DNA of 51,618 nucleotides. Origin: Nitrospirota bacterium. Lineage in GTDB: Bacteria; Nitrospirota; Thermodesulfovibrionia; UBA6902. The notes below the pieces were generated by a model. The model saw nothing but the letters and a program-made list of their open reading frames with translations. It did no database searches and was not told the DNA's origin. Shown here piece after piece: positions 8,932 to 29,621 of the stretch. The position numbers and the translations under genes are program-made. Each line of letters begins with the position of its first letter. Positions within the stretch are counted from its first letter, which is position 1. The stretch lies in assembly GCA_003354025.1 (NCBI GenBank), contig PIVU01000003.1:1-51618 (forward strand), given 5' to 3'.

Positions 8932-9960
8932 ATGAAACTTAGTGAACTGGCCAGGCATATAGGTGGTGACATTATAGGGGACCCGGAAATTGAGATTACG
9001 GGAGTATCAGGAATCACGGAAGCTCAAACTGGAGACATCTCCTATATTCACGACAAGAAATTCTTAAAAGATCCTTCTGCAATACGTGCGTCGGCAGTAA
9101 TAGTCAAAGAGGTTGCTGAAGGGTTGCCAATTAGCATGCTTGTGGTCAAAAACCCTCAGTATACTTATGCAAAAGCACTGGAAGTTTTCTACATAAAACC
9201 ACATGCATGTACGGGAATCAGCGATAGAGCTTTTATAGGAGACAATGTAACTCTGGGCAGCGAGGTCTCAGTCCATCATTTTGCATGCATACGCGACGGT
9301 GTCGTGATTGGTTCCGGGGGAACAATATTCCCGGGGGTGTTTATAGGTAAAGGAGTCACTATTGGTGATAATGCTCTTATCTATCCAAATGTCACGATCA
9401 GAGGGAATACAAAAATTGGAAATAATGTGACCATTCATTCCGGGACAGTCATCGGATCAGACGGGTTTGGATATGTCATGGAGCAGGGTATGCATTATAA
9501 GATACCGCAGGTCGGAGGTGTTGTTGTTGAAGACAACGTTGAAATCGGCTCCAATGTAACCATTGACAGGGGTACAACCGGAAACACAATAATAGGAACG
9601 GGTACAAAAATTGATAATCTTGTACAAATTGCCCATAATGTGAAAATAGGCAGCCACTCAATTATCGTTTCGCAGGTCGGAATCAGCGGAAGCGTTGATA
9701 TTGGAAACAGCGTAATACTGGCCGGTCAAGTGGGAGTCAGAGATCATATTACTATAGGCAATAATGCGATCATAGGCGCACAATCCGGAATAGGCGGCAA
9801 TATTCCGGAAGGCCAGGTTTATTCCGGAAGCCCTGCCATTCCGCACAAATCATGGTTAAGAGCTCAAAGCATCTATGCGAAATTGCCTGAGTACATCAAG
9901 CGCATACAGGCACTTGAAAGAAAATTGGATAACTTAACCGGAACTAAACAGGACACATGA
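8932..9960 (+). CDS. lpxD: UDP-3-O-acylglucosamine N-acyltransferase
   Basis: 342 aa. N-terminal MKLSELA..I.G domain followed by a long run of hexapeptide (left-handed beta-helix) repeats. Confidence 0.92.
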   Translation: MKLSELARHIGGDIIGDPEIEITGVSGITEAQTGDISYIHDKKFLKDPSAIRASAVIVKEVAEGLPISMLVVKNPQYTYAKALEVFYIKPHACTGISDRAFIGDNVTLGSEVSVHHFACIRDGVVIGSGGTIFPGVFIGKGVTIGDNALIYPNVTIRGNTKIGNNVTIHSGTVIGSDGFGYVMEQGMHYKIPQVGGVVVEDNVEIGSNVTIDRGTTGNTIIGTGTKIDNLVQIAHNVKIGSHSIIVSQVGISGSVDIGNSVILAGQVGVRDHITIGNNAIIGAQSGIGGNIPEGQVYSGSPAIPHKSWLRAQSIYAKLPEYIKRIQALERKLDNLTGTKQDT

Positions 9961-10078
9961 TAAACCTGCGTAAGGGCAATTCATGAATTGCCCCTACAAA
10001 TGATAATTGCCTTAATTGTAAAGGTATTATGTAGTTGTATACTCGTATTGAACTTAATAATTCTAGGAGGACTTTCAG

Positions 10079-10519
10079 ATGATGAATATCTTGGAAATTC
10101 AAAAAATGCTGCCCCACAGATATCCTTTTCTGCTTGTGGACAGGATTCTTGAAATAGAGCCCAATGTAAAAGCGGTGGGAATAAAAAATGTAACCTATAA
10201 CGAACCTTTTTTTCAGGGACATTTCCCGGACAATCCAATAATGCCGGGGGTATTGATTGTTGAAGCTATGGCCCAGGTATCAGGAATTCTTTCAATTCAG
10301 TCAGGTGCCACAGGGAATACCATTTATTTCATGAGCATTGAAAAAGCCAAATTCAGAAAACCTGTTGTTCCGGGAGACCAGCTGCGATTTGAAGTGTCCG
10401 TTCTTCAGCATCGAAATAAAGTGTGGAAATTTACAGGACAGGCCCTTGTAGATGGCAAACTTGTAGCAGAAGCTGAATTTACAGCAATGCTAAGTGACGA
10501 GGTGCGTGATAATGGCTAA
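10079..10519 (+). CDS. fabZ: 3-hydroxyacyl-ACP dehydratase FabZ
   Basis: [13 protein letters not shown]...[25 protein letters not shown] is the canonical FabZ signature. AGGAGG 8 nt upstream. Confidence 0.95.
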
Positions 10520-11291
10520 ACCGAAAATTCACAAAACAGCGATCGTCGCAGCAGATGCAAAGCTTGCAGAAGGCGTGGAAATCGGCCCTTTTTGTATTAT
10601 TGGTAAACGGGTAAAAATTGGTAAAAATACTAAACTTCAGTCTCACATTGTTATAGAAGAAACTGAAATCGGCAGTGATTGTACTATCTTCCCCTTCACT
10701 TCTATCGGGCTCCCGCCGCAGGACACCAGATATGAAAATGAAAGAACAAAAGTAAAAATAGGAAAGAACAATATAATACGTGAATATATAACTATTCATC
10801 GTGCATCCGTGGGCGGCAATAAAATTACCAGGATAGGCAACAGCAACTTTCTCATGGCATATGCTCATATTGCTCATGACTGCAATATCGGCAATAACAT
10901 AATCATAGCAAATGCTACAACTCTGGCAGGTCATGTTGAAATAGAAGATCATGCATTTATCGGCGGGATGGTTGCCATCCACCAGTTTACGAGAATAGGC
11001 GCATACTCAATGATAGGGGGCTTCAGCGCCATAACGCAGGACATTCCTCCCTTTACAACAGCATCGGGAGACAGGGCCAAACTCTACGGATTAAACACTG
11101 TAGGGCTTAAACGCCTTGAATTCGATGATTCAGTAATCCGAGGCCTTAAAAAGGCATATAAAACGGTATTCCGCAGCAAGCTTACTCTTAAAGATGCTCT
11201 CAAGAAATTAAAGGCCGATGACAAACAACCTGAAGAAGTAGAGTTGTTTATTGAGTTTATAGAAAAAAATACCCGGGGAATATGCCGTTAA
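10512..11291 (+). CDS. lpxA: UDP-N-acetylglucosamine (or UDP-GlcNAc3N) O/N-acyltransferase LpxA
   Basis: Hexapeptide-repeat N-terminus plus an LpxA-type helical C-terminus (LKRLEF..., IRGLKKAYK). ATG at 10512 (MAKPKIH) overlaps the fabZ stop (ATGGCTAA). Confidence 0.9.
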
Positions 11292-12121
11292 AGGCCCGGC
11301 GACCTGCCGGTAATCTCGGATTAATTGCTGGAATGGGTGACCTGCCCAAGGCAGTAGCATCTGAAGCAAAGAGAATGGGTTATCATGTGGTGGCCGTTGC
11401 GCTTCAACCTCCTGCAGACGAATCGCTTAAGCCCTTTGCGGACGATTTCCATAAAGTCAGCATAGGCCGTCTCGGAGGACTGATCGCCCTGTTGAAAAAG
11501 ATGTCTGTTACAGAAGCTGTAATGGCGGGTAAAGTTCCCAAAGGCCTCCTTTATAAAAACAAAAAAGACATCGTCCCCGATTTAACGATGGCAAAGGTCT
11601 TATTCTCATTAAAAAACCGTTCCGATGACACTATTATGAACGGAATTGTAGGTGAGCTGGAAAAAAACGGAATCACACTACACAAGACCACCACATTTAC
11701 AAAAGGCCTTCTCTGCCCGGAAGGGCTATTGACCCGTAAAAAACCGTCCAAAAAAGAATTGCAGGACATAGAGTATGGATGGCATATCGCAAAAGAGATG
11801 GGTAGACTGGATATAGGGCAGACAGTTGTGGTAAAAAACATGGCTGTAATGGCCATAGAAGCAATTGAAGGGACTGACGAAGCCATTAAGCGCGGGAGCG
11901 AACTTGCTCAAAAAGATGCCGTCGTTATTAAGGTAAGCAAACCAAGCCAGGACATGAGATTTGATGTGCCTGTTTTAGGCCTTGACTCACTGGATTCAAT
12001 GAAAACATCAGGGGCAAAAGTCCTCGCTTTTGAGGCCGGTAAATGTATTATAGTTGACAAGGAAAACTTCATAAAAAAGGCAGATAAAAATGGTTTTGTC
12101 GTGGTAGCTGTAAAAAAATGA
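11282..12121 (+). CDS. lpxI: UDP-2,3-diacylglucosamine pyrophosphatase LpxI (DUF1009 family)
   Basis: LGLIAGMGDLP N-terminus and IEAIEGTDEAIKRG motif. Sits immediately after lpxA, as described for LpxI-type lipid A clusters. Confidence 0.8.
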   Translation: MPLKARRPAGNLGLIAGMGDLPKAVASEAKRMGYHVVAVALQPPADESLKPFADDFHKVSIGRLGGLIALLKKMSVTEAVMAGKVPKGLLYKNKKDIVPDLTMAKVLFSLKNRSDDTIMNGIVGELEKNGITLHKTTTFTKGLLCPEGLLTRKKPSKKELQDIEYGWHIAKEMGRLDIGQTVVVKNMAVMAIEAIEGTDEAIKRGSELAQKDAVVIKVSKPSQDMRFDVPVLGLDSLDSMKTSGAKVLAFEAGKCIIVDKENFIKKADKNGFVVVAVKK

Positions 12122-12179
12122 ACTCAGGCGGAATATACATCGGGCAATGCCATTGCAGATCCATGGAAGACAGGACAAT

Positions 12180-13094
12180 ATGATTAATGTAGCTGTTATT
12201 GGTACCGGTTCAATAGGCAGACACCATGCTAGAATTTTTGCAGGTATTGAGGGCGTAAATCTGGTAGCCATAGTTGACACTGATTCAGCCAGAGCACAGG
12301 AACTTGCTGCCCAATATAACTGCGAAGCGCTTAGCAATTACAAAGATGTAATGAATTCTGTCGATGCCGCAAGTATTGCTGTGCCTACTACTTTGCATTT
12401 TCAAATAGGCATGGATTTTCTCAAAAACAACAAAGACCTGCTGATTGAAAAGCCTATTACAACAACTATCGAAGAAGCACGGGCACTCATTGAAGAGGCT
12501 GAAAGAAGAAACCTTATACTGCAGGTAGGACACCTGGAAAGGTTCAATTCAGGAGTTTCACTGGTAAGCAAGATGGTTGAAAAACCTCAGTTTATTGAAT
12601 CACAGCGCCTTTCTCCATTTTTGGGAAGAGGAACCGATGTTGATGTAACACTTGACTTAATGATACATGACATAGATATAATACTTAGCTTAGTAAATTC
12701 TGAGATATCCGATCTTCGGGCAACAGGGGCCAAAGTTCTTACGGAAAATATTGACGTAGCTCATGCCTGGATTGAATTCAAAAACGGCTGTATAGCCGAA
12801 GCAGTTACGAGCAGAATTGCAAATGACAAAATACGACAGTTAAAAATATTTCAACACAACTCATTTTTAGACCTTGACTATCAACGTCAGGAAATTGTGA
12901 GTCACACAAAGAAAGGCGATTCTATAGGTAAAGAGATTATAAAACCGCAGGAAAAAGAGCCGCTTAAGGAGCAGTTGTTGTCCTTTATTGAATGCGTAAG
13001 CAACAGAACACGTCCTGTCGTTTCCGGCTTAGAAGGCAAGGAAGCCCTGAAAGTAGCATTAAAAGTGTCCGGTTTAGTTAATCTCAGCCTATAA
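12180..13094 (+). CDS. Gfo/Idh/MocA-family NAD-dependent sugar oxidoreductase, GnnA-like (putative UDP-GlcNAc 3-dehydrogenase)
   Basis: Rossmann N-terminus INVAVIGTGSIGRHHA and an EKP motif (LLIEKPIT). Lies between lpxI and a DegT-type aminotransferase. Start moved to the ATG at 12180 (MINVAVIG). Confidence 0.65.
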   Translation: MINVAVIGTGSIGRHHARIFAGIEGVNLVAIVDTDSARAQELAAQYNCEALSNYKDVMNSVDAASIAVPTTLHFQIGMDFLKNNKDLLIEKPITTTIEEARALIEEAERRNLILQVGHLERFNSGVSLVSKMVEKPQFIESQRLSPFLGRGTDVDVTLDLMIHDIDIILSLVNSEISDLRATGAKVLTENIDVAHAWIEFKNGCIAEAVTSRIANDKIRQLKIFQHNSFLDLDYQRQEIVSHTKKGDSIGKEIIKPQEKEPLKEQLLSFIECVSNRTRPVVSGLEGKEALKVALKVSGLVNLSL

Positions 13095-13109
13095 ACTCAT
13101 ATAGTTACT

Positions 13110-14231
13110 ATGACCCAAACAGCTCAAAACAAGACAATGATCCCCATGCTGGATCTCAAAGCTCAGTATCTCCCAATTAAAGAAGAGATTAAATCAGCAG
13201 TTAAGGAAATAATCGAGAGCGGCAGATTTATTCTCGGCAAAAATGTCGAATCATTTGAAAATGAAATTGCATCTTACCATAATGTCAGCGGAGCCGTTGG
13301 ACTTGCTTCCGGCACAGACGCTCTTCATCTCAGCCTCAATGCAATGGACATTAAAGAAGGGGACGAGGTAATAACAACTCCCTTTACATTTATTGCATCG
13401 GCAGAATCTATAGCATATGTCCATGCAACACCCGTATTTGTCGACATAGAGAAAAATACACTCAATATTGATGTCTCTAAAATAGAAGAAAAAATCACAG
13501 CAAAAACTAAAGCCATTGTAGTTGTACACCTTTTTGGACTTCCGGCAAACATGACAGAAATCATGGAGTTAGCAAAGAAGTACAATTTAAAAATCGTTGA
13601 AGACTGCGCCCAGGCTTTCGGTGCTAAGTATAAGGACAGGGCAGTCGGGAGTATAGGGGACTGCGGCTGTTACAGTTTTTACCCCAGTAAGAATCTGGGT
13701 GCCTATGGTGATGGCGGAATGATGATAACAAATAATTCAGGCATCCATGAAACGGTTAAGCTGCTGCGTAACCACGGGACAGTGGGCCCTTACCAGCACG
13801 GTTTCATCGGTTTTAACAGCAGACTGGATGAAATCCATGCTGCTATACTCAGGATTAAGTTAAGGCACATCGATCAGTACAATCAAAACAGAGGCAAAAT
13901 TGCTAAAATCTATTCATCAATTCTGGGTAATGCCGTGAAATGTCCCGTTGAGCTGGAAGACAGGAGTCATGTATATCACCAATACACAATCAGAACTCCG
14001 CAAAGGGACAAAATCCATGAAATTTTAAAGGAAAACTCGATAGCATCTGTTGTGTATTACCCTCTTTCACTTCACCTTCAGGAAGCCTTTGGCTACTTAG
14101 GGTACAAAGAGGGAGATTTTCCGGAATGCGAAGCTGCTTCCAACGAGGTACTGTCCCTTCCAATTTATCCGGAACTGGAACCTGAAAAAGCAGAATATAT
14201 TGCAAAAACAGTTCTAGAGGCGGTAAAGTAA
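13110..14231 (+). CDS. DegT/DnrJ/EryC1-family PLP sugar aminotransferase, GnnB-like
   Basis: 373 aa with GTDALHLSL, FYPSKNLGAYGDGG (PLP lysine) and LPIYPEL motifs typical of the family. Confidence 0.8.
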   Translation: MTQTAQNKTMIPMLDLKAQYLPIKEEIKSAVKEIIESGRFILGKNVESFENEIASYHNVSGAVGLASGTDALHLSLNAMDIKEGDEVITTPFTFIASAESIAYVHATPVFVDIEKNTLNIDVSKIEEKITAKTKAIVVVHLFGLPANMTEIMELAKKYNLKIVEDCAQAFGAKYKDRAVGSIGDCGCYSFYPSKNLGAYGDGGMMITNNSGIHETVKLLRNHGTVGPYQHGFIGFNSRLDEIHAAILRIKLRHIDQYNQNRGKIAKIYSSILGNAVKCPVELEDRSHVYHQYTIRTPQRDKIHEILKENSIASVVYYPLSLHLQEAFGYLGYKEGDFPECEAASNEVLSLPIYPELEPEKAEYIAKTVLEAVK

Positions 14232-16311: not shown

Positions 16312-17076
16312 ATGCACTCCCTCGAAGGCAAAGTTGCTCTAATCACAGGAAGCTCAAGAGGCATCGGTCAGGCTATTGCAAGAAAACTCGCTGCCGCCGG
16401 TGCCGACATTGTTATTAACTACAGAAGGACTGCGGGCTCTTCATTCGCCCAGGCTGAAGAGCTCAACAAAGAGATCGAGGCAATGGGAAGAAAAACTCTT
16501 ATGGTCCAGGCTGACATATCGGAGAAATCCTCTGTTAAAACTCTGTTCGCCAAAATAAGTGAAACCTTCGGCACACTTGACTACCTCATCTTGAATGCAG
16601 CCAAGGCCCCTTTCAAGCCTATCGAAAAACTACTGGAGAGAGAACTTAGGCAGCTCGTTGAAACTAACTATATGGGTAATATTTTTTGTATTCAGGGGGC
16701 TATCCCTCTAATGGAGGCTAAGGGAGGCAGGATTGTATTTATATCAAGTCTTGGAAGCCGTTATTATAACCCCTCCTACCCACTGGGAAGCATGAAAGCG
16801 GCAATGGAATCAATTGTCAGAGACTGTGCAGAAAGTCTCAGAGAAAAAAAGGTGTCTGTAAATGCCGTCTGCGGCGGAATTGTCAAGACCGATTCCTTCA
16901 AAGTTTTAAGACAGTATCTTGAAAATGTTGACAAACTGCCCGATGACCTTATTGTTACCCCCGATGAAATTGCAGATGTTGTATCGTTTCTCTGTTCACC
17001 GGCAAGCAGAGGGATCACTGGCCAGACTATTGTTGTTGATAAGGGGCTGAGCAACTCTCTTTACAGGTCAGCTTAA
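16312..17076 (+). CDS. SDR-family reductase resembling FabL-type enoyl-ACP reductase
   Basis: ITGSSRGIGQA...IVINY, LNAAKAPFKP (in place of NNAG), ISSLGSRYYNPSYPLGSMKAAMES, VNAVCGGIVKTD and GQTIVVDKG. This layout parallels Bacillus FabL as I recall it, not classical FabG. Confidence 0.55.
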   Translation: MHSLEGKVALITGSSRGIGQAIARKLAAAGADIVINYRRTAGSSFAQAEELNKEIEAMGRKTLMVQADISEKSSVKTLFAKISETFGTLDYLILNAAKAPFKPIEKLLERELRQLVETNYMGNIFCIQGAIPLMEAKGGRIVFISSLGSRYYNPSYPLGSMKAAMESIVRDCAESLREKKVSVNAVCGGIVKTDSFKVLRQYLENVDKLPDDLIVTPDEIADVVSFLCSPASRGITGQTIVVDKGLSNSLYRSA

Positions 17077-17184
17077 AAAACGCGGCGATTATATGAGTTA
17101 TGTGTTATACGCTTCAATCTCACCGCTTACTTTTGCAGAGTATAACAAATTACTTATTACGAATAAATATAATATGGAGGCATT

Positions 17185-17748
17185 ATGAGTCAGAACATAG
17201 TAACCGAGGAAAAAGTATTTGAAGAACTGAAAAAGGCAATAGTGGAAACTCTCAGGGTTGACGCTGATTCAATTAAACCCGAAAGTTCGTTAATCAATGA
17301 TCTGGGGGCTGAGTCACTGGACTTCCTTGATATTAATTACAGACTGGAGCAGGCCTTTGGGATGAAAATGGCCCGTCACTTCGTGCTTGAGCATGTAGAA
17401 GAGATGTTCGGTGAAGGTTCAGCTATTGATGATGACGGTCAGCTGACCGAAAAAGCCGTAGAACTCCTCAAAATACGCTTCGGGGACCAAATGGGCCCAC
17501 TCGAGCCGGGCATGGACATGGACGAGGTACCTGCCCTGGTCACTGCCCAGTCAATCTCAGGCGGAGTCATGGACATACTGGCAAGTCTTCCGGAAAAATG
17601 CACTCACTGCGGCGCACAGCAATGGACCTCCGAAGACGGGATCAAAATCAAATGCGGCTCATGCGGAGAACCGGCTGTTTTCAGTAACGGAGATGACTTA
17701 ATCAAGGATTGGCTGACAAAAGTCCAGGAAGAGAAAAAGATATTCTAA
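17185..17748 (+). CDS. Acyl carrier protein domain fused to a C-terminal CxxC-x14-CxxC zinc ribbon
   Basis: NDLGAESLDFLDINYRLEQAFG is an ACP helix-II motif, with Ser44 at codon 17314-17316. The C-terminus EKCTHCGAQQWTSEDGIKIKCGSCGEP carries Cys139/142/157/160. GGAGG lies upstream of the ATG. Confidence 0.75.
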   Translation: MSQNIVTEEKVFEELKKAIVETLRVDADSIKPESSLINDLGAESLDFLDINYRLEQAFGMKMARHFVLEHVEEMFGEGSAIDDDGQLTEKAVELLKIRFGDQMGPLEPGMDMDEVPALVTAQSISGGVMDILASLPEKCTHCGAQQWTSEDGIKIKCGSCGEPAVFSNGDDLIKDWLTKVQEEKKIF

Positions 17749-19037
17749 ATAATACATCCAAAAAAAGAGTTGTAATTACCGGATACGGGATGATTACGCC
17801 TTCAGGCAGGAATACCGAAGAGACCTTTGAGAATTGCAGCAAGGGCCATTCCGGGATAGATTATATTAAATCATTTGATACAACAGGAATGCCGTGCCGG
17901 ATCGGTGGAGAAGTCAACAACAGCTGGCTTGAGGATTTTGAACAGCAGACAGACCGTTCACTGAATAATTATTCTTCACGGGCATTAAGATTAATGAGAG
18001 TAGCAACAACTGAAGCTCTTCAGAAGGCCAAACTGGACGAAGTAGAAGACCGTCACTCAATTGGTGTTGCACTGGGCTCTCACGGTGACAACCTCCCTGT
18101 AAAGGACATGCAGTTCATTCATAAGTTTTACCGGGGTGAAGGGCGCTGGGACATGAAGAAACTTGCTGAATCAGGCGGCTACCCTTACCTGAATTTCTTC
18201 AGAAGAAAGCCTGATGCCGCATCAACTATACTGGCATCTTTTTTTAACTGTAAAGGACCCTCTCTTGCTATAGTATCAGCCTGTGCAGCCGGCTCACAGG
18301 CTATAGGGGAAGCCGTAAGGTTAATTCAGGACAGTAAATGCAAAGTAATGATTGCAGGTGGATGTGAAGCAACTCTTGATTTTGTGGGGATGACCGGTTT
18401 TATCCTGCTGAAGGCCCTGTCCGAAAAATATACGGAGCCGCAAAAAGCGTCACGGCCTTTTGACCGAAGGAGAAATGGGTTTGTCATGTCCGAAGGGGCC
18501 GGTTCAGTAGTTCTGGAGGAACTGGACCATGCTCTGTCACGGGGAGCTCACATATTCGGAGAATTAAAAGGGTACGGCTCCTCTGCCGATGCCTACCGGA
18601 TTACGGACACTCACCCAAAAGGAGTGGGAGCTGTTACTGCAATGACTGCAGCCATTGGTGACGCATCCTTAACACCTGATGATATTGATTATATAAATGC
18701 ACATGGGACCTCAACAACTCAGAATGACCTAACTGAAACCAGGGCAATAAAAGAAGTTTTTGGAGAAAAAGCAGGAGACATTCCGATAAGTTCAAATAAA
18801 TCCATGCTGGGCCATACTATAGCCGCAGCCGGTGCTATCGAATGTATACTTACATTAGAAGGAATTAATCAGTCTATTGTCCTCCCTACAATCAACCAGG
18901 AAGTGCGTGACCCAAAGTGCAAACTGGACTACGTTCCAAACACTGCACGCAAAATGGATCATAATACAGCAATATCCAATTCTTTTGGATTTGGCGGGCA
19001 AAACGCCTGTCTCTGCATCAGCAAATTTAAAGACTAG
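17709..19037 (+). CDS. Beta-ketoacyl-ACP synthase, FabF/KAS II-like (intact Cys-His-His triad)
   Basis: VSACAAGSQAIG (Cys), INAHGTSTTQND (His), SNKSMLGHTIAAAG (His) and NSFGFGGQNA. The start is uncertain: the only in-frame start upstream of VVITGYG is TTG at 17709, which overlaps the ACP gene by 40 nt. Confidence 0.85.
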   Translation: MADKSPGREKDILNNTSKKRVVITGYGMITPSGRNTEETFENCSKGHSGIDYIKSFDTTGMPCRIGGEVNNSWLEDFEQQTDRSLNNYSSRALRLMRVATTEALQKAKLDEVEDRHSIGVALGSHGDNLPVKDMQFIHKFYRGEGRWDMKKLAESGGYPYLNFFRRKPDAASTILASFFNCKGPSLAIVSACAAGSQAIGEAVRLIQDSKCKVMIAGGCEATLDFVGMTGFILLKALSEKYTEPQKASRPFDRRRNGFVMSEGAGSVVLEELDHALSRGAHIFGELKGYGSSADAYRITDTHPKGVGAVTAMTAAIGDASLTPDDIDYINAHGTSTTQNDLTETRAIKEVFGEKAGDIPISSNKSMLGHTIAAAGAIECILTLEGINQSIVLPTINQEVRDPKCKLDYVPNTARKMDHNTAISNSFGFGGQNACLCISKFKD

Positions 19038-19119
19038 CCTGCTTGTTTAACTGTTTCCTGTAATATTGAATTTGCTAAAATCTGCGATAGGTGAGAAAAA
19101 AACCGGAAGGGCTGAAGAC

Positions 19120-19461
19120 TTAATGAATGCTTTCTCTATCCATGTCCTGCAGGAATTCATGATATGCAGTAGTCGGATCTAATATTTTCATTCCAACAGT
19201 CAAAGTTTCGTCATCAGGAGCAGTCCGCAAGTACCACTTCACTTCACAGTTTAGATATAGTATCTTGCCTGAGGGAGTTTGAAAACTAAGTGTGATTATC
19301 CTCTCGGGCACAAAATCTATTGAAGATCTGATTGCCGATGTCATTAAATACTCAATACCATCCTCGGATACATTGTCAATAAATCCACCACATGATTTGC
19401 CGCCTGATATAATGTTAGCGTTAAGATTACAAATCATTCTGTTTGACTGCCGATTGTCCAC
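19120..19461 (-). CDS. Stand-alone PilZ-domain protein (putative c-di-GMP receptor)
   Basis: 113 aa with RQSNR (RxxxR) and NVSEDG (D/N-x-S-x-x-G) at canonical spacing. GTG start with GAGG about 9 nt upstream. Confidence 0.7.
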   Translation of the reverse strand: MDNRQSNRMICNLNANIISGGKSCGGFIDNVSEDGIEYLMTSAIRSSIDFVPERIITLSFQTPSGKILYLNCEVKWYLRTAPDDETLTVGMKILDPTTAYHEFLQDMDRESIH

Positions 19462-19726
19462 TAATAAATACCTCGTCTCACTATATTAACTACGACATTC
19501 ATTAAGCAAAATAAGTGCCTGACATTAACCTCTTGTTTTTATAGGTTACTATTATTATTTATTAGCTGTTTATTGTCAAAGGTTCCGACAAAGAGTAAGA
19601 GTATCCGACAAATAATGTTCAGGGATAATAACCGCTCCAAGTATTCCCTAAGAGTGGACTGCCCCGTTTACTTTAAATAAATAAAGCCGTTACAGGGCAG
19701 CCCCTTCATATATAACACTATCTGAC

Positions 19727-20044
19727 TTAGTTCACAACGATTTTACCCTTAATTTTCTCAAAAGTCTTCTTTGCAATCCCCTCCACTTTCCTAAGGTCGT
19801 TAATGTCGCTAAAATTACCGTTATTGTTTCTATAGTTAATGATCGCCTCTGCCTTCTTCTTTCCAATACCCGAAAGTATTGTGAGTTCCTTAACTGTGGC
19901 AGTATTAATATTGATTGAAGTGTCCACGACTTGACTGTTTGATTCGGTGTGCTTATTCTCTACTGCCACTGACGTCGACACAAATATGCCGGCCATCATA
20001 AAAACTGCAATGATAATGCACATTCTTGATAATACTTTTTTCAT
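19727..20044 (-). CDS. comEA: ComEA-like helix-hairpin-helix DNA-binding protein with signal peptide
   Basis: INTATVKELTILSGIGKKKAEAIINYRNNNGNFSDINDLRKVEGI is the ComEA HhH signature. AGGAGG lies upstream of the ATG. Confidence 0.8.
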   Translation of the reverse strand: MKKVLSRMCIIIAVFMMAGIFVSTSVAVENKHTESNSQVVDTSININTATVKELTILSGIGKKKAEAIINYRNNNGNFSDINDLRKVEGIAKKTFEKIKGKIVVN

Positions 20045-20475
20045 AACATCCTCCTGGTTTTAAAGATTAGTAATCCATTTGAAATTTACAGCTCTGAAGT
20101 CATCACCTCCTTTCTGATATTTCAGGAAAACATCGGACAAGACAAGCAAATGCATAGCAGTATCGGGCAAGGTTTCACAGCATAAAAATGTTCAACCGGT
20201 GCCAAATCCACACAGATCATTCTTGTTTCCGTCAGATAAACTCTAAACGGAAAATGGTTGCATTTGAAAATTACGCGGCTTGTCAGCCCTGTCCCCAACA
20301 GATGCTAAAGTATATATAAAAGAACGCAGAATGTCCAGCAAATCTCCATGATTTAAGTTCATTGAATTAGATGGAACATATATAGAGATTCAGCCCATTT
20401 CTCGTCGAAAAATGCATTGCAACTAACCCTCCGATATTGCATCGTTTATCATCCATCCTGTATCATGTTCTAATC

Positions 20476-21750
20476 ATGAATGAACAGGTCGTAATTACAG
20501 GAGCAGGAATGGTAAACGCTCTCGGCAGAAGTTTACCTGCATCGTGGGACAAACTGGCTTCGGGGAAATGCGGTATCCGTTCCATAGAAAGCTTTAACGC
20601 AAAGGGCCTTAATTGCACTGCAGCAGCAGAGGTAAATGACCTGAACGCTGAAGAGTTAAACGTACATCCGAGAGATTCTCGAATCATGGACAAGCATGCC
20701 TACATGCTGCTTAAAGCATCGCGCGAATCTTTCAGTCATGCAGGACTTGATAAAGCATCTGTAGACCCGAATAATATCGGTTATTTCGCATCTATGGGGA
20801 TGGTAGACTACAACCTGGAAGATCTTCTACCGTCAGTGCTAAAGTCACTTGATGATAAGGGGAACCTGGATTACGACAAATTCTATTCCGGTGCATACCA
20901 GGAGATTCATCCTCTATGGCCTCTGTCAATGCTAAATAACATAAATTTCTGCCAGGTAGCCATTGACCTTGGTATCAGGGGAGAGAATACAACATTCGCA
21001 CCCCATTCCGATTCGGCTATACATTCAATAATTGAAGCATACAATGCAGTTCTAGAGAAACAAGCTGAAGTTATTCTGGCCGGAGGAGTCAGTGAAAAAG
21101 TATCTCCCTCCAGCCTGGCACGTGCTTCAATGGCCGGGATTCTAAACAGTAATGACATATCATGCCGGCCTTTTGGTAAAAACAGCACAGGAACAATGCT
21201 GGGAGAAGGATGCGGCATAATAACGATAGAACTGCTTTCACATGCAATAGCCAGACAAGCGCCATGCCTTGCCAGAATATCCGGTTACGGCTCCTCTTTT
21301 GGATCGTCAGACATCAGCAATTCCGCTACTTCAGCAGCAATATCACTTTCAATGGAAACAGCGCTTGAAAAAGCAGAGCTTAAGCCCGGGGATATAGACC
21401 TTATCATCGCCCACGGCGACGGGGCCCCGGAAGGGGATGCAAATGAAGCTGAAGCTATTCATAATACCTTCGCTGGTTGCCTGAATACCTTACATGTGTA
21501 TTCCTCAAAAGCCGCCCTTGGGCATCTATTGTCCGGCGCATCCGCAGTAGACGTAGTTATCGGAACTAATATACTGATAAATGGTATAATTCCAGCGATT
21601 TTCGATTCAGGGCCGCTTGAAGATAATATTGCATTAAATCTTGTCAGAGGGGACCCTCTTAAAGCCGACCCGGCACGGATAATGATTAATTCCCGGAGCT
21701 ATGAAGGACAGTGCGCTTCGCTGATAATTGAAAAGTGGATTGACGAATGA
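20476..21750 (+). CDS. Ketosynthase-family protein with active-site Cys replaced by Ser (CLF-like or decarboxylating KS)
   Basis: VVITGAGMVNALG N-terminus. Aligned on the AGG anchor against the two neighbouring KS genes, the catalytic Cys position is Ser191 of the long ORF (TCC at 21007-21009; context FAPHSDSAIHS). Both His motifs are kept (IIAHGDGAPEGD, SSKAALGHLLSGAS). Start set at the ATG at 20476 (MNEQVV). Confidence 0.75.
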   Translation: MNEQVVITGAGMVNALGRSLPASWDKLASGKCGIRSIESFNAKGLNCTAAAEVNDLNAEELNVHPRDSRIMDKHAYMLLKASRESFSHAGLDKASVDPNNIGYFASMGMVDYNLEDLLPSVLKSLDDKGNLDYDKFYSGAYQEIHPLWPLSMLNNINFCQVAIDLGIRGENTTFAPHSDSAIHSIIEAYNAVLEKQAEVILAGGVSEKVSPSSLARASMAGILNSNDISCRPFGKNSTGTMLGEGCGIITIELLSHAIARQAPCLARISGYGSSFGSSDISNSATSAAISLSMETALEKAELKPGDIDLIIAHGDGAPEGDANEAEAIHNTFAGCLNTLHVYSSKAALGHLLSGASAVDVVIGTNILINGIIPAIFDSGPLEDNIALNLVRGDPLKADPARIMINSRSYEGQCASLIIEKWIDE

Positions 21751-21799
21751 AAATAGTTATTCAACATATCTCTCGTCATTAATTTGTAATTGTTTTATT

Positions 21800-22255
21800 A
21801 TGCGTTTTCTATACTACGATACAGTCGATAAAATCGAAAAAGGAAAAACAATTGTGGGAGCAAAGACCTTCACGTTATCTGAGGAGTTCTTTAAAAAGCA
21901 CTTTCGCAAACAAGCTCTCGTCCCAGGTATTATTTATATTGAAGCAATGGCACAGCTCCTGGGCTGGCTTGTCATATACACCCATGATTTCAAACTCTCT
22001 GCAGTCATGTCTCTGGTTGAAGACGTAGACATTGCCCCTGACCTGAGGCCTGGTTTTAAAGCGGAAATTCATGGAGAAATAATATCAACATCACGCAGAG
22101 ACTCCCTGGGTAAAGCATGGATAACAGTGGACGGGAAAACCATCGCTTCCGTAAACCGGATCATTTACAGTCACGTTCACAAAGTCAATTCTCAGGACCT
22201 TATGAATCTCTTTTACTATTACAGCGGGATTAAGGCTGATCTCAATGAGCAGTAA
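21800..22255 (+). CDS. FabZ/FabA-like hot-dog fold dehydratase
   Basis: EEFFKKHFRKQALVPGIIYIEAMAQLLG parallels the housekeeping FabZ motif [25 protein letters not shown] in this same window. Start set at the ATG at 21800 (MRFLYYD). The stop overlaps the next KS start. Confidence 0.75.
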   Translation: MRFLYYDTVDKIEKGKTIVGAKTFTLSEEFFKKHFRKQALVPGIIYIEAMAQLLGWLVIYTHDFKLSAVMSLVEDVDIAPDLRPGFKAEIHGEIISTSRRDSLGKAWITVDGKTIASVNRIIYSHVHKVNSQDLMNLFYYYSGIKADLNEQ

Positions 22256-23531
22256 GCACAGAGTTGTTATCACAGGACTAGGCATGGCAACGTCACTGGG
22301 CACCACTGTAGATGAAAACTGGAGTAAAGCCCTTGAAGGTCAATCGGGCATTAAAGAGCTTTCACTGCCGAACACAGAGAAGTCACCTGTCAGGGCGGTT
22401 GGAAGTGTTGCCCTAAGGGACTGGCAAAAGATCCAGGCAGCGTTCCCTGGAGAAGCTGCTCAGGAAGGTGAGCGGAGAACCCTCTTTGCTTTATGGTCAG
22501 CAATGTCAGCATTAGACGATGCCGGTTTAACAAAATATGACGGCCCAAAAGACCGTTTTGGTGTCGTGCTTGCAGCAGGCCTCGGCATAAACAGACTGGA
22601 AGATATTCACCGATGGACCAACCAAAACAAAGAGTTCGACCTCGAGAAATTCGGCAAAGAGTATAAAGACATACACTCTGAATCCCTGATGAAAAACAAC
22701 GCCCACAGGCCCGCCGCACTTATAGCAAAAAAATACGGATTGAATGGATACAACTCCACCATAACAACAGCGTGCGCATCGGCTACACAGGCCATCGGCA
22801 CTGCTTACCGTTCGATTTATCGGGGAGATTCGGACATGATCGTTTCAGGAGGAGCAGACTCCATGATCAACCCTGTGGGCCTCATATTTTTTGTTCTGCT
22901 CAGTGCGGCTGCCGTATCAAAGGACAATCCATCGGAAATCTGCAGGCCCTTTGACAGGAAAAGATCTGGCCTTGTTATGGGTGAAGGATCAGGTATGGTT
23001 GTGCTGGAAGAAGAATCTCACGCACTGAAGAGGGGTGCAAAAATATACGCTGAAGTATCAGGATACGCTTCAACTATGGACGCTTACAAAGTAACGGCGC
23101 CTCATCCAAAAGGTATCGGCGCCGAACGTGCCATGATAAACGCCCTTAAAGATGCGGACATGGCCCCTGATGAAATAGATTATATTAATGCCCACGGCAC
23201 TAGTACAAAACTGAATGATTCAGCGGAAACACTGGCAATAAAAAATGTGTTTAAAGATCATGCCCGTAATTTATCAGTAACCTCAAGCAAAGCTCTCATA
23301 GGACATTTACTGGCAGCTTCCGGAGGGCCTGAGTTTGTCTTTACGGCATTGACTGTTAACAGGGACGAAATTCACCCGACTATTAATCAGCATAATCCTG
23401 ATCCGAAGTGCGATCTTGATTATGTTCCCAATATCAAAAAATCTGCTGCCGTGAGGGCCGCAATTTCAAATTCATTCGGTTTTGGTGGACAGAACGGGTC
23501 AATTGTTGTCAAAAAATATGGATCGAGTTAG
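22245..23531 (+). CDS. Beta-ketoacyl-ACP synthase, FabF-like (intact triad)
   Basis: TTACASATQAIG (Cys), INAHGTSTKLND, SSKALIGHLLAASG and NSFGFGGQNG. Confidence 0.88.
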   Translation: MSSKHRVVITGLGMATSLGTTVDENWSKALEGQSGIKELSLPNTEKSPVRAVGSVALRDWQKIQAAFPGEAAQEGERRTLFALWSAMSALDDAGLTKYDGPKDRFGVVLAAGLGINRLEDIHRWTNQNKEFDLEKFGKEYKDIHSESLMKNNAHRPAALIAKKYGLNGYNSTITTACASATQAIGTAYRSIYRGDSDMIVSGGADSMINPVGLIFFVLLSAAAVSKDNPSEICRPFDRKRSGLVMGEGSGMVVLEEESHALKRGAKIYAEVSGYASTMDAYKVTAPHPKGIGAERAMINALKDADMAPDEIDYINAHGTSTKLNDSAETLAIKNVFKDHARNLSVTSSKALIGHLLAASGGPEFVFTALTVNRDEIHPTINQHNPDPKCDLDYVPNIKKSAAVRAAISNSFGFGGQNGSIVVKKYGSS

Positions 23532-23576
23532 TGAGTTAAAAAACTACTGATTATATGTTACTGAAGGGATAAGAAT

Positions 23577-24329
23577 ATGAAAATAGATTTAACAGGCAAA
23601 GTAGCACTTGTCACAGGGGCATCAAGGGGGATAGGACGGGCCACGAGCATCATGCTGGCCAAGGCAGGAGCTTCCGTAATTATTAATTACGTCAAGTCTG
23701 CTGAAAAAGCTGAGGAAGTAAAAAACGAGATCTCCGGTACCGGTGGTACGGCAGATATTTTTCAGGCCGATGTCTCTAAGCCCGAAGATGTAAAAGCCCT
23801 ATTCGAATTTATAACAGGAAAATATAACAGGCTGGATATACTTGTAAACAATGCCGGTGTTATAAAGGACAACCTTCTTATTGCAATGAAACTCAAGGAT
23901 TGGGACAGGGTTATTGATACAAATTTAAAGGGTGCATTTCTTTGTTCACAGCAGGCTGCGGAAATTATGATGGCAAATCACTCAGGGAAAATCATTAATG
24001 TTTCATCAATAGGCGCTATCAGGGGAGGACGGGGTCAAACCAACTATTCATCTGCAAAAGGCGGTCTCATGTCATTCACAAAAGCATGCGCTGTAGAACT
24101 TGCATCAAAGGGGATTCAGGCAAACGCAGTACTGCCGGGCATGATCGTAACCGACATGAGTGTCCGGGCTAGAAAAAGGGCCGGAGATAAAATACTTGAA
24201 CGAATCCCTGCAGAAAAGTTCGGCGAACCCGATGACATAGCCGCCATGATCGTATTCCTGGCTTCGAAACATGCAGATTATATTACCGGGCAGACCATAT
24301 CCATCGACGGAGGGATGGGGATTTCGTAA
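23577..24329 (+). CDS. fabG: 3-oxoacyl-ACP reductase (FabG-type SDR)
   Basis: VTGASRGIGRA, NNAGV, SSIGAIRGGRGQTNYSSAKGG (S...YxxxK) and ITGQTISIDGG. The symbol denotes the family. This may be a pathway-specific paralogue. Confidence 0.85.
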   Translation: MKIDLTGKVALVTGASRGIGRATSIMLAKAGASVIINYVKSAEKAEEVKNEISGTGGTADIFQADVSKPEDVKALFEFITGKYNRLDILVNNAGVIKDNLLIAMKLKDWDRVIDTNLKGAFLCSQQAAEIMMANHSGKIINVSSIGAIRGGRGQTNYSSAKGGLMSFTKACAVELASKGIQANAVLPGMIVTDMSVRARKRAGDKILERIPAEKFGEPDDIAAMIVFLASKHADYITGQTISIDGGMGIS

Positions 24330-24372: not shown

Positions 24373-25077
24373 TTACCAAACTGGACGATAGAATAAATTA
24401 AGGATTATCGCACGGATGATCCTGTACCCTACAATTGCAATACCCTTAACATCACCTGTGAACTTTGATTTGCCGGTACCCATACGATAACTAACAGGTA
24501 CTTCTTTTATTTTAAAATTGCACCTGACAGCCTTAACCTGCATTTCTATTGTCCATCCAAGGTTATCATGCATATCCAGAGTCAGCAGTTTATCAAACTT
24601 AACAGCCCTGAATGGCCCCACATCAGTATATTTGAATCCATAAAACAATCTCATCAATACAGTTGCCAGCCAGTTTCCGAAGCGCACCGGAACTCTAAGC
24701 GAGCCCTCTTCAGCTTCTCCCAACACTCTGGAGCCGCAGACAAGATCATAGCCTTCATTGACCATAGGTTCAACGAGCTTAATTATTTCAGTGGGGTAGT
24801 CACTATAATTACCATCAAGAAAAACAACGATATCCGGCTTGCTCATTTTCAGGTATTCAATACCCTTCAGGCACGGATAACCATAACCCTTTTTCGACTC
24901 GTTTAAAAGTGTTGCGCCCCACTCTTTTACAACCTGAGGAGTCCTGTCGGTGCTGCCGTTGTCAATCACGACAACTTCATCAATTAAATCCCCTGGGATG
25001 TCATTAAGAACAAGAGAAATCGTCTCTTCTTCATTCAACACCGGTATTATGGCAGCTATTGTTTTATTATTTAACAT
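24373..25077 (-). CDS. Small soluble-type family 2 glycosyltransferase (polyprenyl-phosphate/GtrB-like catalytic domain, no C-terminal TM helices)
   Basis: AAIIPVLNEEE..., VVVIDNGSTDRT and FLDGNYSD (DxD-like) motifs. 234 aa. Confidence 0.75.
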   Translation of the reverse strand: MLNNKTIAAIIPVLNEEETISLVLNDIPGDLIDEVVVIDNGSTDRTPQVVKEWGATLLNESKKGYGYPCLKGIEYLKMSKPDIVVFLDGNYSDYPTEIIKLVEPMVNEGYDLVCGSRVLGEAEEGSLRVPVRFGNWLATVLMRLFYGFKYTDVGPFRAVKFDKLLTLDMHDNLGWTIEMQVKAVRCNFKIKEVPVSYRMGTGKSKFTGDVKGIAIVGYRIIRAIILNLFYRPVW

Positions 25078-25243
25078 TTGACCTGTTTTGATCGTTTCTT
25101 CACTATATTATACTTTGGCTGGGAATAAAGATGTTTTTGCTACAATTATTACTATTCCACCTTATGCTAAAGGGACCTGCCTAGCTCCGGAAGTCTCTCT
25201 TTACTTGATTTTATTTTTTGCTCTATGGTATTTTTATAAGCCC

Positions 25244-27622: not shown

Positions 27623-27882
27623 CTCTCTCACTCAAAACTCTGTCAATGAAATTCATCACCAAAGAAGCATAACTAACTGACTTAATACTTAGCAGTTCAG
27701 TAAAATTTCCGCCAACCCATTAAATCAATTCAATTTTCTCTTAGCGAATAAATACTCAGGATACAATCAGTCGGCAGGCAGTATGACCGTAATCATCAAT
27801 TTCCCAAGGCAGGTTATTGCAACTTATTAAGGCGAGGTTTATTTAAACAGCTATAGCTAATATATAAACCGTGCTTATTCAA

Positions 27883-28446
27883 TTAGTCCAGGCAATTCCA
27901 GAAACGCCGAAGACTACAATCAGTCATTTCATGATAATGTTTGTATTGCGCTTCTGCTTTCTCCACCATCCCCAGTTTCTCATAGACAACCGCCCTATCC
28001 CATAAGGAATAGGGGTGAGACGGATCAACTGCAAGAACTTTTTCATACTGGTTAAGGGCTTCCTGAAAGCGGCCTGCTTCTTTATATATGTATGCTATAT
28101 CATAAAGAGCATTTACATTTTGCGGGTCTAGTTTTAAAGCCTTAGCATACTGCGTAAGGGCTTTGCTGTGAAGTCCCATTTCTCTGTATATGTAGCCCAG
28201 GTCATAGTTTCCAAATGGGTGCTCAGGAAATTGCTTCAGAAGATTAATATAGGCATTCTCGGCCCCTTCAAGGTTCCCCATTTCCTTATACATCAATCCC
28301 ATCTGATAATTTGCATAGGCATTTCCAGGATCAGCCTGTACAGCCCTTGCAAATGCTTCAATTGCATTATCTTTGGAACCCATTGTCTGGTAAAGAACTG
28401 CTGTAAGGGTGTGCCTATGAGAAAAGGTGAAAAGAGATACTACCAA
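27883..28446 (-). CDS. TPR-repeat protein (about 4 TPRs); the N-terminal signal/anchor sequence is only reachable through a homopolymer frameshift
   Basis: Repeats of the type AIEAFARAVQADPGNAYANYQMGLMY.... In frame upstream of the TTG at 28446 lies KKNIVILIVICLLL with no start codon. An ATG at 28496 is one frame off, across an A10 run. Confidence 0.7.
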   Translation of the reverse strand: MVVSLFTFSHRHTLTAVLYQTMGSKDNAIEAFARAVQADPGNAYANYQMGLMYKEMGNLEGAENAYINLLKQFPEHPFGNYDLGYIYREMGLHSKALTQYAKALKLDPQNVNALYDIAYIYKEAGRFQEALNQYEKVLAVDPSHPYSLWDRAVVYEKLGMVEKAEAQYKHYHEMTDCSLRRFWNCLD

Positions 28447-28508
28447 AAGCAGACAAATTACTATAAGGATTACGATGTTTTTTTTTTAATATGCATTCTC
28501 AGAAAATA

Positions 28509-28551
28509 ACAGGCGCCTTCATTTATTGTTTCATAAAATGAAAGCGCCTGT
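28509..28551 (-). terminator. Intrinsic terminator-like hairpin between the barrel gene and the TPR gene
   Basis: Minus-strand RNA reads ACAGGCGCUUUCAUUU-(11 nt loop)-AAAUGAAGGCGCCUGU followed by UAUUUUCU. The 16-bp stem has a single U-G wobble in the minus sense, which would be a C-A mismatch in the plus sense. Confidence 0.65.
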
Positions 28552-28583
28552 CCATAAACTTAACAAAGTATGCTGTTTATATA

Positions 28584-29573
28584 TTAGTGACTGTATGCAA
28601 GAGCAACTGCATATGTTTCACCAAGCGCAGCATTTTTAGTATGCTTCAAACCAAAAAAGTCTGATATGTCCGTATTATAAGAAAATACCAGCTGCAGCCC
28701 TGGCTTTAATGTAAAAGCCAGGTCTACCCCCCCACTAAAGGTATCCTGCTCAAGGGCAAGAGAATCTTTAATAACTACCGGTTTACCATGAGCTTTTGAT
28801 ACGCTGCCCTGGTCATAGAATAACTGCGCCATTACGTCTGAAACTTCTGCATTACCGACTGAATCAGAATAGGCAAACTGTCCCCTGATCGATAACCATG
28901 GAGTTGCATTGTAACCGCCACTCAATGCAACTTTAAACTGATCAGACGGTTTAAACGTAGCATCGTTGGGAAGCTGTTCATTTTCAAACCGGTAAACATA
29001 TGAAATATCAAGTACTGAGTACCCCCAGTTGAATCCCCTACCAAATTTTAGTTTTGAAGTTAAATCATACTGTCCCTCTCCAAGGGGTTGATGCGTTGCA
29101 GGATTTGCATAGTCATATGCTTCAGGAATTTTCACACCAAATTCAATTGACGATAACACTCCCGTGCCGGCAATATTATCAATCAATTTATGCCTAAGTC
29201 CAACATTTATGTCACCAACTCCGCTGGGACCCCTTTTATCGGTTTCTATCATTACATCATGAGACTTTACCCAGTTCCATGGGATTGAAAAAATACCAGT
29301 AATCTTATCTGTAATACCATACTCAAGATAGTAGGTTACTGCAGTGCTTGTAAATTCTTCCGAGTCAACCCTGTGGACTTCAGTATCCAAACCCACTATA
29401 GCACCAGCGCTATCATGCTGCAAAGTAGTAAATTTCTGAGTGGTCTGATAATGACTTAAACTAAGCTGATTATAAGAATGCCCTTTTGCCTGGGTCCATG
29501 CTGCCATAGCAGCATCTGTTATAAATAAACATACTGCTGTTAATAACAACGATACGACTACTCCTTTTTTCAT
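28584..29573 (-). CDS. Outer-membrane beta-barrel protein (MetA/phenol-degradation-like transporter type)
   Basis: Signal peptide ...FITDAAMA-AW. Alternating hydrophobic/aromatic beta-strand pattern throughout. AAGGAG 8 nt upstream of the ATG at 29573 (MKKGVV). Confidence 0.65.
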   Translation of the reverse strand: MKKGVVVSLLLTAVCLFITDAAMAAWTQAKGHSYNQLSLSHYQTTQKFTTLQHDSAGAIVGLDTEVHRVDSEEFTSTAVTYYLEYGITDKITGIFSIPWNWVKSHDVMIETDKRGPSGVGDINVGLRHKLIDNIAGTGVLSSIEFGVKIPEAYDYANPATHQPLGEGQYDLTSKLKFGRGFNWGYSVLDISYVYRFENEQLPNDATFKPSDQFKVALSGGYNATPWLSIRGQFAYSDSVGNAEVSDVMAQLFYDQGSVSKAHGKPVVIKDSLALEQDTFSGGVDLAFTLKPGLQLVFSYNTDISDFFGLKHTKNAALGETYAVALAYSH

Positions 29574-29621
29574 AAATAACACTCCTTTTAATAGAATTTA
29601 CTTAAACATCGTTTTTATATT

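Follow-up and report, generated by a model that had tools for sequence, protein, structure and literature searches.

What does a bacterium build with a second set of fatty acid elongation enzymes, and to which acceptor is the product passed? The question is raised by a stretch of 51,618 nucleotides from a Nitrospirota bacterium (contig PIVU01000003.1 of GenBank assembly GCA_003354025.1; "the window" hereafter means this whole stretch), in which two operons encode seven proteins of the type II fatty acid synthase (FAS) kind, among them an acyl carrier protein (ACP) fused to a zinc ribbon, here called ACP-Zn. How lipid A is acylated determines the rigidity and permeability of the outer membrane as well as immune recognition, and to our knowledge no dedicated pathway for a special chain on lipid A is well studied apart from the AcpXL/LpxXL system of Alphaproteobacteria. 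Judged by gene content and order, the two operons belong together as pieces of a single conserved cluster of 11 genes, and we consider it probable that this cluster is an orthogonal type II FAS that gives a special secondary acyl chain to lipid A, with seven of its genes in the window. A wider proposal is put forward more tentatively, as a serious possibility: that the zinc-ribbon ACP marks an undescribed 11-gene orthogonal FAS which places an unusual secondary chain, such as a very long or functionalised one, on lipid A independently of AcpXL/LpxXL, and whose core has been co-opted for natural products in Nocardia.

Pfam and NCBIfam profile searches bear out the seven cassette open reading frames, and their domains, that were named in a first-pass annotation made by a model before any database search. 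They are SDR_A, a FabL-like short-chain dehydrogenase/reductase (SDR) and probable enoyl-ACP reductase (ER); ACP-Zn; two elongating ketosynthases (KS), KS_A and KS_B; CLF1, a full-length KS paralogue that lacks the catalytic Cys; DH_B, a FabZ-like dehydratase (DH); and FabG_B, a 3-oxoacyl-ACP reductase (KR). Related loci (L numbers) include those from a scan of one genome per species with a seven-sequence ACP-Zn alignment, and there are at least as many as are listed here; their neighbourhoods were mapped with the window and locus proteins as references, plus Pfam, and the flanks of 17 loci were clustered all-against-all. The recurrent order is SDR_A, ACP-Zn, KS_A, CLF1, DH_B, KS_B, FabG_B, AcpS, DH2 (a second dehydratase), KS4 (a second Cys-less KS) and an acyltransferase of family PF03279. 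This order is found in Thermodesulfovibrionia (L012, L013, L094), NC10 (L018), Acidobacteriota (L020), Planctomycetota (L022-L024) and metagenome-assembled genomes (MAGs) labelled delta proteobacterium or Syntrophobacteraceae (L016, L017, L019), with some loci short of one or two members in the fetched sequence (the acyltransferase in L022 and L023, a FabG_B match in L020). The complete cluster encodes its own AcpS-type phosphopantetheinyl transferase, and no further gene was conserved with it in the flank clustering. It is widespread yet unstudied in Nitrospirota, NC10, Acidobacteriota, Planctomycetota and Desulfobacterota-like MAGs. Source databases annotate its proteins generically, NCBIfam (June 2026) holds no equivalog for any of them, and no published description of the cluster was found in the literature on zinc-ribbon ACPs, on KS/chain-length factor (CLF) pairs with a lipid A acyltransferase, or on lipid A with very-long-chain fatty acids (VLCFA) in these phyla.

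The carrier of the system, 187 aa in total, has its PP-binding domain at residues 14-70 and a CxxC...CxxC arrangement at the C-terminus (Pfam). Ser44 and the four cysteines (Cys139, Cys142, Cys157 and Cys160) are invariant in an alignment of 24 sequences, whose members are 24-66% identical to the window protein. A word-indexed search returned 731 homologue clusters, mostly from Nitrospirota MAGs at 73-94% identity to the query, and an exhaustive search of representatives returned 1831 proteins at E ≤ 0.001, many of them full-length (about 182-205 aa) and with identities down to about 25%. On these alignments the ACP-zinc-ribbon fusion is a real protein family. The AlphaFold2 model is a single compact fold (pLDDT 95, pTM 0.89), in which helices at 89-103, 121-132 and 169-184 and a Cys-bearing beta hairpin at 147-157 are added to the ACP domain. 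The invariant ribbon represents a new carrier-protein architecture; it might help to select partners, enlarge the acyl pocket, or dock the carrier to the membrane or to the acyltransferase. The first-pass annotation had proposed a dedicated FAS-like system with an unusual carrier of its own, a view that the comparison across loci supports and strengthens.

Foldseek with the ACP-Zn model matches nothing but ACPs. The R. palustris 'specialized ACP' RPA2022, which we take to be an AcpXL orthologue with an enlarged cavity holding a C28 chain, was aligned over 123 columns, and ordinary ACPs over about 56-70. Against the ACP-Zn family profile, RPA2022 scores 59.2 bits and the T. maritima ACP 60.2 bits; by sequence the family is no closer to RPA2022 than to housekeeping ACPs. 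On NF005079 (PRK06508), presumably the AcpXL-type model, ACP-Zn reaches 46.7 bits (cutoff 83), no better than it does on generic ACP models, and it falls under every AcpP equivalog cutoff in NCBIfam.

Among the enzymes that surround this carrier, catalytic residues are intact in both active KS, in both DH and in the KR. KS_A and KS_B score 420.8 and 418 bits on the FabF subfamily model NF005589 (cutoff 387) and FabG_B scores 247.9 bits on the FabG subfamily model NF009466 (cutoff 222), so that these three pass FabF/FabG models at the subfamily level only. The Cys-His-His triad is kept in KS_A and KS_B at all loci compared, and in KS_B it is invariant in 120 of 120 homologues. DH_B matches PF07977 with 47 bits and FabZ models with 61 bits, under their cutoffs; together with DH2 it keeps the FabZ catalytic His and Glu in Gram-negative loci. 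It is a second dehydratase copy in the window, as first described, and is only 30% identical to the housekeeping FabZ there. For SDR_A, FabL leads the NCBIfam models with 222.5 bits (the next reaches 159; the cutoff of FabL is 328), and the best PDB match is B. subtilis FabL 3oic (154.6 bits, next 118.8). The catalytic Tyr and Lys of FabL align, with a spacing one residue shorter than Tyr-x6-Lys. A homologue of SDR_A lies near ACP-Zn in all 17 loci, and in the majority of Gram-negative ones it is the gene immediately upstream of ACP-Zn.

The two Cys-less paralogues differ from the condensing enzymes at the nucleophile. The first-pass annotation had described CLF1 as a KS with Ser in place of Cys; a Ser is indeed present, opposite the catalytic Cys in the alignment to S. 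aureus FabF (2gqd), but the exchange itself is not supported as a feature with meaning. In orthologues the position is taken by Ala, Ser, Gly or Pro (73, 33, 13 and 1 of 120 homologues, with Cys in none), and the Ser of the window protein is therefore incidental. The second His is replaced by Asn in 29 of the 120. CLF1 and KS_B co-occur across the compared loci, and CLF1 is a probable chain-length-factor-like, non-condensing partner of KS_B. In KS4, Ser, Pro or Glu stands in place of the catalytic Cys; both His are kept in most loci compared, and L024 has lost the first. A role of the CLF1 Ser as catalytic nucleophile was considered and rejected, the residue not being conserved.

A lipid A acceptor is suggested by the last gene of the complete cluster and by the neighbours of its two ends. 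The cluster acyltransferase matches PF03279 with 151 bits, and its best NCBIfam models (PRK06553, PRK08419) are lipid A lauroyl acyltransferases, on which it scores under the cutoffs. It keeps the HX4E motif, His132/Glu137 of E. coli LpxL, and matches that protein over about 280 residues with 53.5 bits. In the close relative L094 (ACP-Zn 82%, KS_A 83% and DH_B 82% identical to those of the window) the order opens with a soluble lytic transglycosylase (SLT) gene, SDR_A, ACP-Zn and KS_A; next, on the opposite strand, come the genes for ComEA and a PKD protein; the order goes on with CLF1, DH_B, KS_B, FabG_B, AcpS, DH2, KS4 and acyltransferase, and then directly lpxB, waaA (330 bits on the lipid IVA Kdo-transferase model) and lpxK. 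The SLT gene lies at the edge of the L094 sequence fetched; just past this gene the window and its other relatives have the lpxD...gnnB block. Hence, from the late genes of L094 and the upstream block of its relatives, the cluster lies between the early and the late lipid A genes.

That the cassette starts close to lipid A genes had been pointed out in the first-pass annotation, and the same neighbourhood recurs in L001, L004, L006, L007, L008 and L093. The block lpxD-fabZ-lpxA-lpxI-gnnA-gnnB stands beside SDR_A-ACP-Zn-KS_A in the window, L001, L004, L008 and L093, and in part in L006 and L007; L002 has a gnnB fragment only. The distant locus L005 (48% identity) has a reduced cluster, with two PF03279 acyltransferases, an MsbA-like ABC exporter and lpxB on its flanks. 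The window's own locus runs bamA-skp-lpxD-fabZ-lpxA-lpxI, then a GFO/IDH/MocA oxidoreductase and a DegT aminotransferase (Pfam). This pair is presumably of the GnnA/GnnB type that makes GlcN3N lipid A, and a 2,3-diamino-2,3-dideoxyglucose (GlcN3N) lipid A backbone is thereby implied. At 11282-14231 the window has LpxI instead of LpxH, followed by the oxidoreductase and aminotransferase genes.

Several observations weigh against a lipid A destination. By tblastn, paralogues already described aside, the window is without AcpS, DH2, KS4, the LpxL-type acyltransferase, lpxB, waaA and lpxK, and because of this the transfer step rests on relatives. It also has no FabD or FabH, and the first-pass description of the cassette as self-contained is not sustained: by gene content the window holds only about two thirds of the cluster, with the last four genes missing. 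The cassette is real, yet an incomplete fragment. All NCBIfam scores of the cluster acyltransferase are below cutoffs, PF03279 also holds phosphatidylinositol-mannoside and lysophospholipid acyltransferases, and the L094 enzyme may be nothing more than the general LpxL of its organism. The cluster has no lipid A genes beside it in most other phyla, and we know of no lipid A structure from these organisms. A canonical acpP-fabF locus was not found with E. coli PlsX, FabH, FabD and AcpP queries in about 300 kb of Thermodesulfovibrionia loci, a result that is uninformative at that size. In Nocardia the core occurs with a radical SAM enzyme, an aminotransferase and FabD in the acyltransferase's stead; Nocardia has no lipid A, and therefore the core is not bound to lipid A in every lineage.

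The same observations lend weight to another reading, in which the cluster makes a specialised acyl or polyketide-like chain for a different envelope lipid or glycolipid, or a released natural product. Outside Thermodesulfovibrionia the majority of complete clusters have no lipid A genes next to them, the acyltransferase family takes in enzymes acting on other lipids, and the core recurs in Nocardia in a natural-product-like setting that adds a methyltransferase and an FAD monooxygenase. The combination of core KS, Cys-less KS, KR, two DH and dedicated ACP also follows the logic of aryl polyene (APE) and highly reducing type II polyketide synthase (PKS) systems, and on this view the LpxL-family enzyme would attach the chain much as those systems anchor their products. 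We compared the cluster with the apeA-R genes of E. coli CFT073 (PMC8253772). It shares with them the logic of a KS alongside a chain-length factor, two dehydratases, a single FabG-like KR, dedicated ACPs and an acyltransferase, which in APE anchors the product in the envelope. Unlike APE, it has no aryl starter ligase (ApeH) or other adenylating enzyme, no methyltransferase, thioesterase or LolA/MMPL/DUF3261 export genes and no ApeK, ApeL, ApeM or ApeN, either among its conserved genes or in the window. Its Cys-less KS are full length (about 425 aa, against 240 aa for ApeC), its DH are FabZ-like and not of the ApeI/ApeP type, and its acyltransferase is LpxL-like, with no BLASTP match to ApeD among the CFT073 proteins. 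The conserved FabL-like ER is not needed for a polyene and argues for a saturated chain. The first-pass annotation had spoken against an aryl-polyene product on account of the ER, and the protein comparison supports it. APE membership was rejected by BLASTP against CFT073, in which ApeC, ApeI and ApeP give 22 bits or less and ApeO and ApeR score below FabF.

Highly reducing type II PKS of actinomycetes are likewise matched in part. As in the ishigamide system (Iga10-16), there is a KS with a putative Cys-less partner, a KR, a DH and an ACP, which would work iteratively, and the partner is encoded beside the active KS as in type II KS/CLF pairs. The ER and the lipid A-type acyltransferase set the cluster apart, and PDB scores of the KS to the Iga KS 6kxd and the actinorhodin KS/CLF 1tqy are well under those to FabF. 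Cispentacin Amc proteins were among the NCBIfam matches, AmcF under its cutoff. With the cluster embedded in lipid A genes in L094, in L005 and in the window's clade, a chain made for something other than lipid A is an unlikely explanation, though one with real points in its favour.

A precedent for a dedicated lipid A chain exists in rhizobia, where AcpXL-FabZXL-FabF2XL-FabF1XL-AdhA2XL-LpxXL makes the VLCFA 27-OH-C28:0 of lipid A (PMC11901934). The cluster resembles it in the dedicated ACP and dehydratase, the pair of FabF paralogues clustered with the ACP, the terminal LpxL-family acyltransferase (in complete clusters), the two transcription units and the proximity of lipid A genes. Organisms with such very long chains commonly have lipid A of the GlcN3N type. 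In contrast to AcpXL, which has about 92 aa, ACP-Zn is about twice that length and has its invariant zinc ribbon; the cluster also carries its own KR, FabL-like ER and AcpS, four KS-family genes of which two are Cys-less, and two DH genes. Neither the window nor the conserved gene set of the cluster includes an AdhA2XL-type alcohol dehydrogenase. The proteins are under the candidate NCBIfam cutoffs (NF005076 and NF005084 included) and belong to other phyla. The likeness to AcpXL noted in the first-pass annotation hence stands as one of function, given the LpxL-family gene that ends complete clusters and the lpxB-waaA-lpxK genes of L094, and falls as one of membership: AcpXL/LpxXL is the closest functional analogue. 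Mycobacterial FAS-II offers a second parallel. Its AcpM has a C-terminal extension and its KasA and KasB divide the chain-length ranges for very long chains, much as a C-terminally extended ACP and two KS enzymes occur together here. However, AcpM has no zinc ribbon, the NCBIfam models for AcpM and for KasA/KasB fall far short of their cutoffs, and the product has another destination.

A more ordinary account would make the cassette the housekeeping FAS of this Nitrospirota lineage, with ACP-Zn as its general ACP. ACP-Zn is indeed 73-94% identical within the clade, the cassette lies beside the core envelope genes bamA-skp-lpxD-fabZ-lpxA, and ±10 kb pieces of closed genomes show no canonical plsX-fabH-fabD-fabG-acpP-fabF. 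However, that canonical set, with an AcpP of 75-80 aa, is not what the cluster contains: E. coli queries detected no FabD, FabH or PlsX in the window or in any Gram-negative locus. A canonical fabZ exists separately in the lpx operon, and both ACP-Zn and SDR_A are below all equivalog cutoffs. Furthermore, the cluster occurs with its own AcpS and terminal LpxL-type acyltransferase in Planctomycetota, Acidobacteriota and NC10, and its core in Nocardia, all of which presumably possess ordinary FAS. We regard a housekeeping role as very improbable.

Small dedicated ACP/KS/KR/DH clusters for cofactors are known from anaerobes: the D. vulgaris genes DVU2560-2563 (FabZ, KR, ACP and FabF) make pimeloyl-ACP for biotin (PMC10102598). 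A FAS-like route to a cofactor precursor on this model would share with our cluster the dedicated ACP, FabF, FabG and FabZ-like proteins. Whereas bio genes flank DVU2560-2563, lipid A genes flank the cassette; the cluster is far larger, and no bioF, bioA, bioD, bioB or other cofactor gene is conserved with it (thiamine genes follow the cluster in L086 but are not a conserved feature of other loci). A C7 diacid would also be a poor fit for a cluster that has four KS-family genes along with an enoyl reductase and a terminal acyltransferase of the lipid A type, which leaves a cofactor route scarcely credible.

For the favoured reading, a secondary chain for lipid A, acceptor and product are what we infer from gene content, conservation, catalytic residues and synteny, and the following course may be proposed. 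ACP-Zn would be converted to its holo form by the cluster's AcpS, whose gene is not in the window, and malonate would be loaded by the housekeeping FabD, because the cluster has no FabD of its own in Gram-negative loci. Condensation would fall to KS_A and KS_B, whose active sites are intact, with KS_B probably paired with CLF1 and KS_A with KS4 (not in the window); the Cys-less partners might set chain length or prime by decarboxylation of malonyl-ACP. Keto reduction by FabG_B, dehydration by DH_B and DH2, and enoyl reduction by SDR_A are predicted from the retained residues, and the cycle would yield a largely saturated chain. Judged by gene context, the LpxL-family late acyltransferase would then transfer the acyl group from ACP-Zn to Kdo2-lipid IVA as a secondary chain of GlcN3N-type lipid A. 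The analogies with AcpXL/FabF1XL/FabF2XL and with KasA/KasB suggest that the chain is probably long or very long, or else special in another way. Sequence does not reveal its structure, as the first-pass annotation had rightly held.

If this is correct, there is a second, differently built and phylogenetically broad system for a lipid A chain, and unusual lipid A chemistry is predicted in environmentally dominant, poorly cultured phyla. The genes would then serve as a genetic marker for such lipids, of use to lipid biomarker work, and would provide an orthogonal set of ACP, AcpS, KS, KR, DH and ER for engineering.

Clusters are variously split or reduced. SDR_A-ACP-Zn-KS_A lies beside lipid A genes in CP070644.1 and CP070788.1, where the cluster is split; in CP070788.1 CLF1 stands alone elsewhere, next to ComEA, and in CP070699.1 CLF1-DH_B-KS_B-FabG_B-AcpS are together at a locus without ACP-Zn. 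The variant loci L005, L009 and L014 have no CLF1 and no KS_B. On the 4.73 Mb contig ERZ21869602 (L005:7815-20558) SDR, ACP-Zn, KS_A, AcpS, KR, DH2 and KS4 occur without CLF1, DH_B and KS_B, and this reduced cluster may be the minimal functional unit. In L002 (CP070740.1, 6292-11861) SLT, SDR, ACP-Zn and KS_A come after a truncated DegT gene and unrelated genes, with no full lipid A operon, which suggests that these closely related genomes differ by a rearrangement or in the way they were assembled. The Nocardia loci L025-L030 (for example L026:8573-20199) hold a core of ACP-Zn, KS_A, Cys-less KS, DH, KS_B, AcpS, FabG, DH2, KS4 and FabL-like SDR, to which genes for a radical SAM enzyme (506 aa), a class III aminotransferase, a methyltransferase, an FAD monooxygenase and FabD are added. 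They have no LpxL-type acyltransferase, their DH_B has lost the catalytic His, and they look like an uncharacterised natural-product cluster.

In the window the cluster ends with FabG_B at 24329, and a convergent GT2 gene follows 44 bp further on. In relatives AcpS-DH2-KS4-acyltransferase come after FabG_B, and in the close relative L087 DH2 follows it. We read this as a rearrangement that broke the cluster after fabG in the window's genome, in which AcpS-DH2-KS4-acyltransferase and the essential lpxB-waaA-lpxK must lie elsewhere. The block after the cassette has a GC content of 0.38-0.39, against 0.45-0.46 in the cassette. It spans 24373-31142 and encodes a GT2 that resembles dolichyl-phosphate-hexose transferases, a polytopic protein of 844 aa that includes a spermidine-synthase-like domain, a TPR protein, a protein of 332 aa that starts with a signal-like N-terminus and matches no family, and a GT2 similar to cellulose/PNAG synthases; the block, at the breakpoint of the cluster, is probably a module for an exopolysaccharide or a glycoconjugate. 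The first-pass annotation had connected the cassette with these glycosyltransferase, membrane and outer-membrane genes. A functional tie was rejected, since none of the 17 loci keeps these genes together with the cluster and since they have the lower GC.

Table 1 Features of the cassette and its setting in the window
Feature	Position	Strand	Evidence or remark
SDR_A, FabL-like SDR, probable enoyl-ACP reductase	16312..17076	+	First gene of the conserved cluster
ACP-Zn, acyl carrier protein with helical extension and C-terminal four-Cys zinc ribbon	17185..17748	+	
KS_A, elongating ketosynthase, active site Cys-His-His	17709..19037	+	PF00109, PF02801, NF005589
PilZ-domain gene, between the operons, outside the conserved cluster	19120..19461	-	Pfam PF07238
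ComEA-like helix-hairpin-helix gene, between the operons	19727..20044	-	Pfam HHH_3, TIGR00426
CLF1, full-length KS paralogue without catalytic Cys (Ser there)	20476..21750	+	Alignment to FabF
DH_B, FabZ-like 3-hydroxyacyl-ACP dehydratase	21800..22255	+	PF07977
KS_B, elongating ketosynthase, active site Cys-His-His	22245..23531	+	NF005589
FabG_B, 3-oxoacyl-ACP reductase, last cluster gene in the window	23577..24329	+	NF009466
Lipid A genes lpxD-fabZ-lpxA-lpxI-gnnA-gnnB, upstream context	8932..14231	+	Pfam matches
Housekeeping-type fabZ within lpxD-fabZ-lpxA	10079..10519		Separate from the cassette

The arrangement of the cassette as two co-directional operons (Table 1) is as first described, with the correction that two minus-strand genes, for a PilZ-domain and a ComEA-like protein, part them. 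Among the compared loci the PilZ gene was seen only in the window and its closest relative L093. The ComEA-like gene adjoins the CLF1 or KS_A gene in L001, L003, L010, L093 and L094, and it keeps this adjacency in relatives even where the cluster is split, as a clade-specific neighbour. For KS_A, whose gene overlaps that of ACP-Zn, the TTG at 17709 is the sole canonical in-frame start.

The first-pass annotation had further listed FabD, FabH, thioesterase, acyl-ACP ligase and acyltransferase as absent from the window. For the first two this agrees with our searches, and the window open reading frames that were scanned showed neither a thioesterase nor a ligase domain; acyltransferases, on the other hand, are present outside the cassette, as LpxA, LpxD and a PlsC-type gene. 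The last (PF01553, 40958-41611) stands in a cmk-plsC-ispH-rpsA arrangement. Elsewhere in the window, 32374-35619 encodes a 1081-aa protein in which a 4Fe-4S dicluster domain (Fer4_11) is fused to a molybdopterin oxidoreductase, with genes for an ArsR-type regulator and a rhodanese just upstream.

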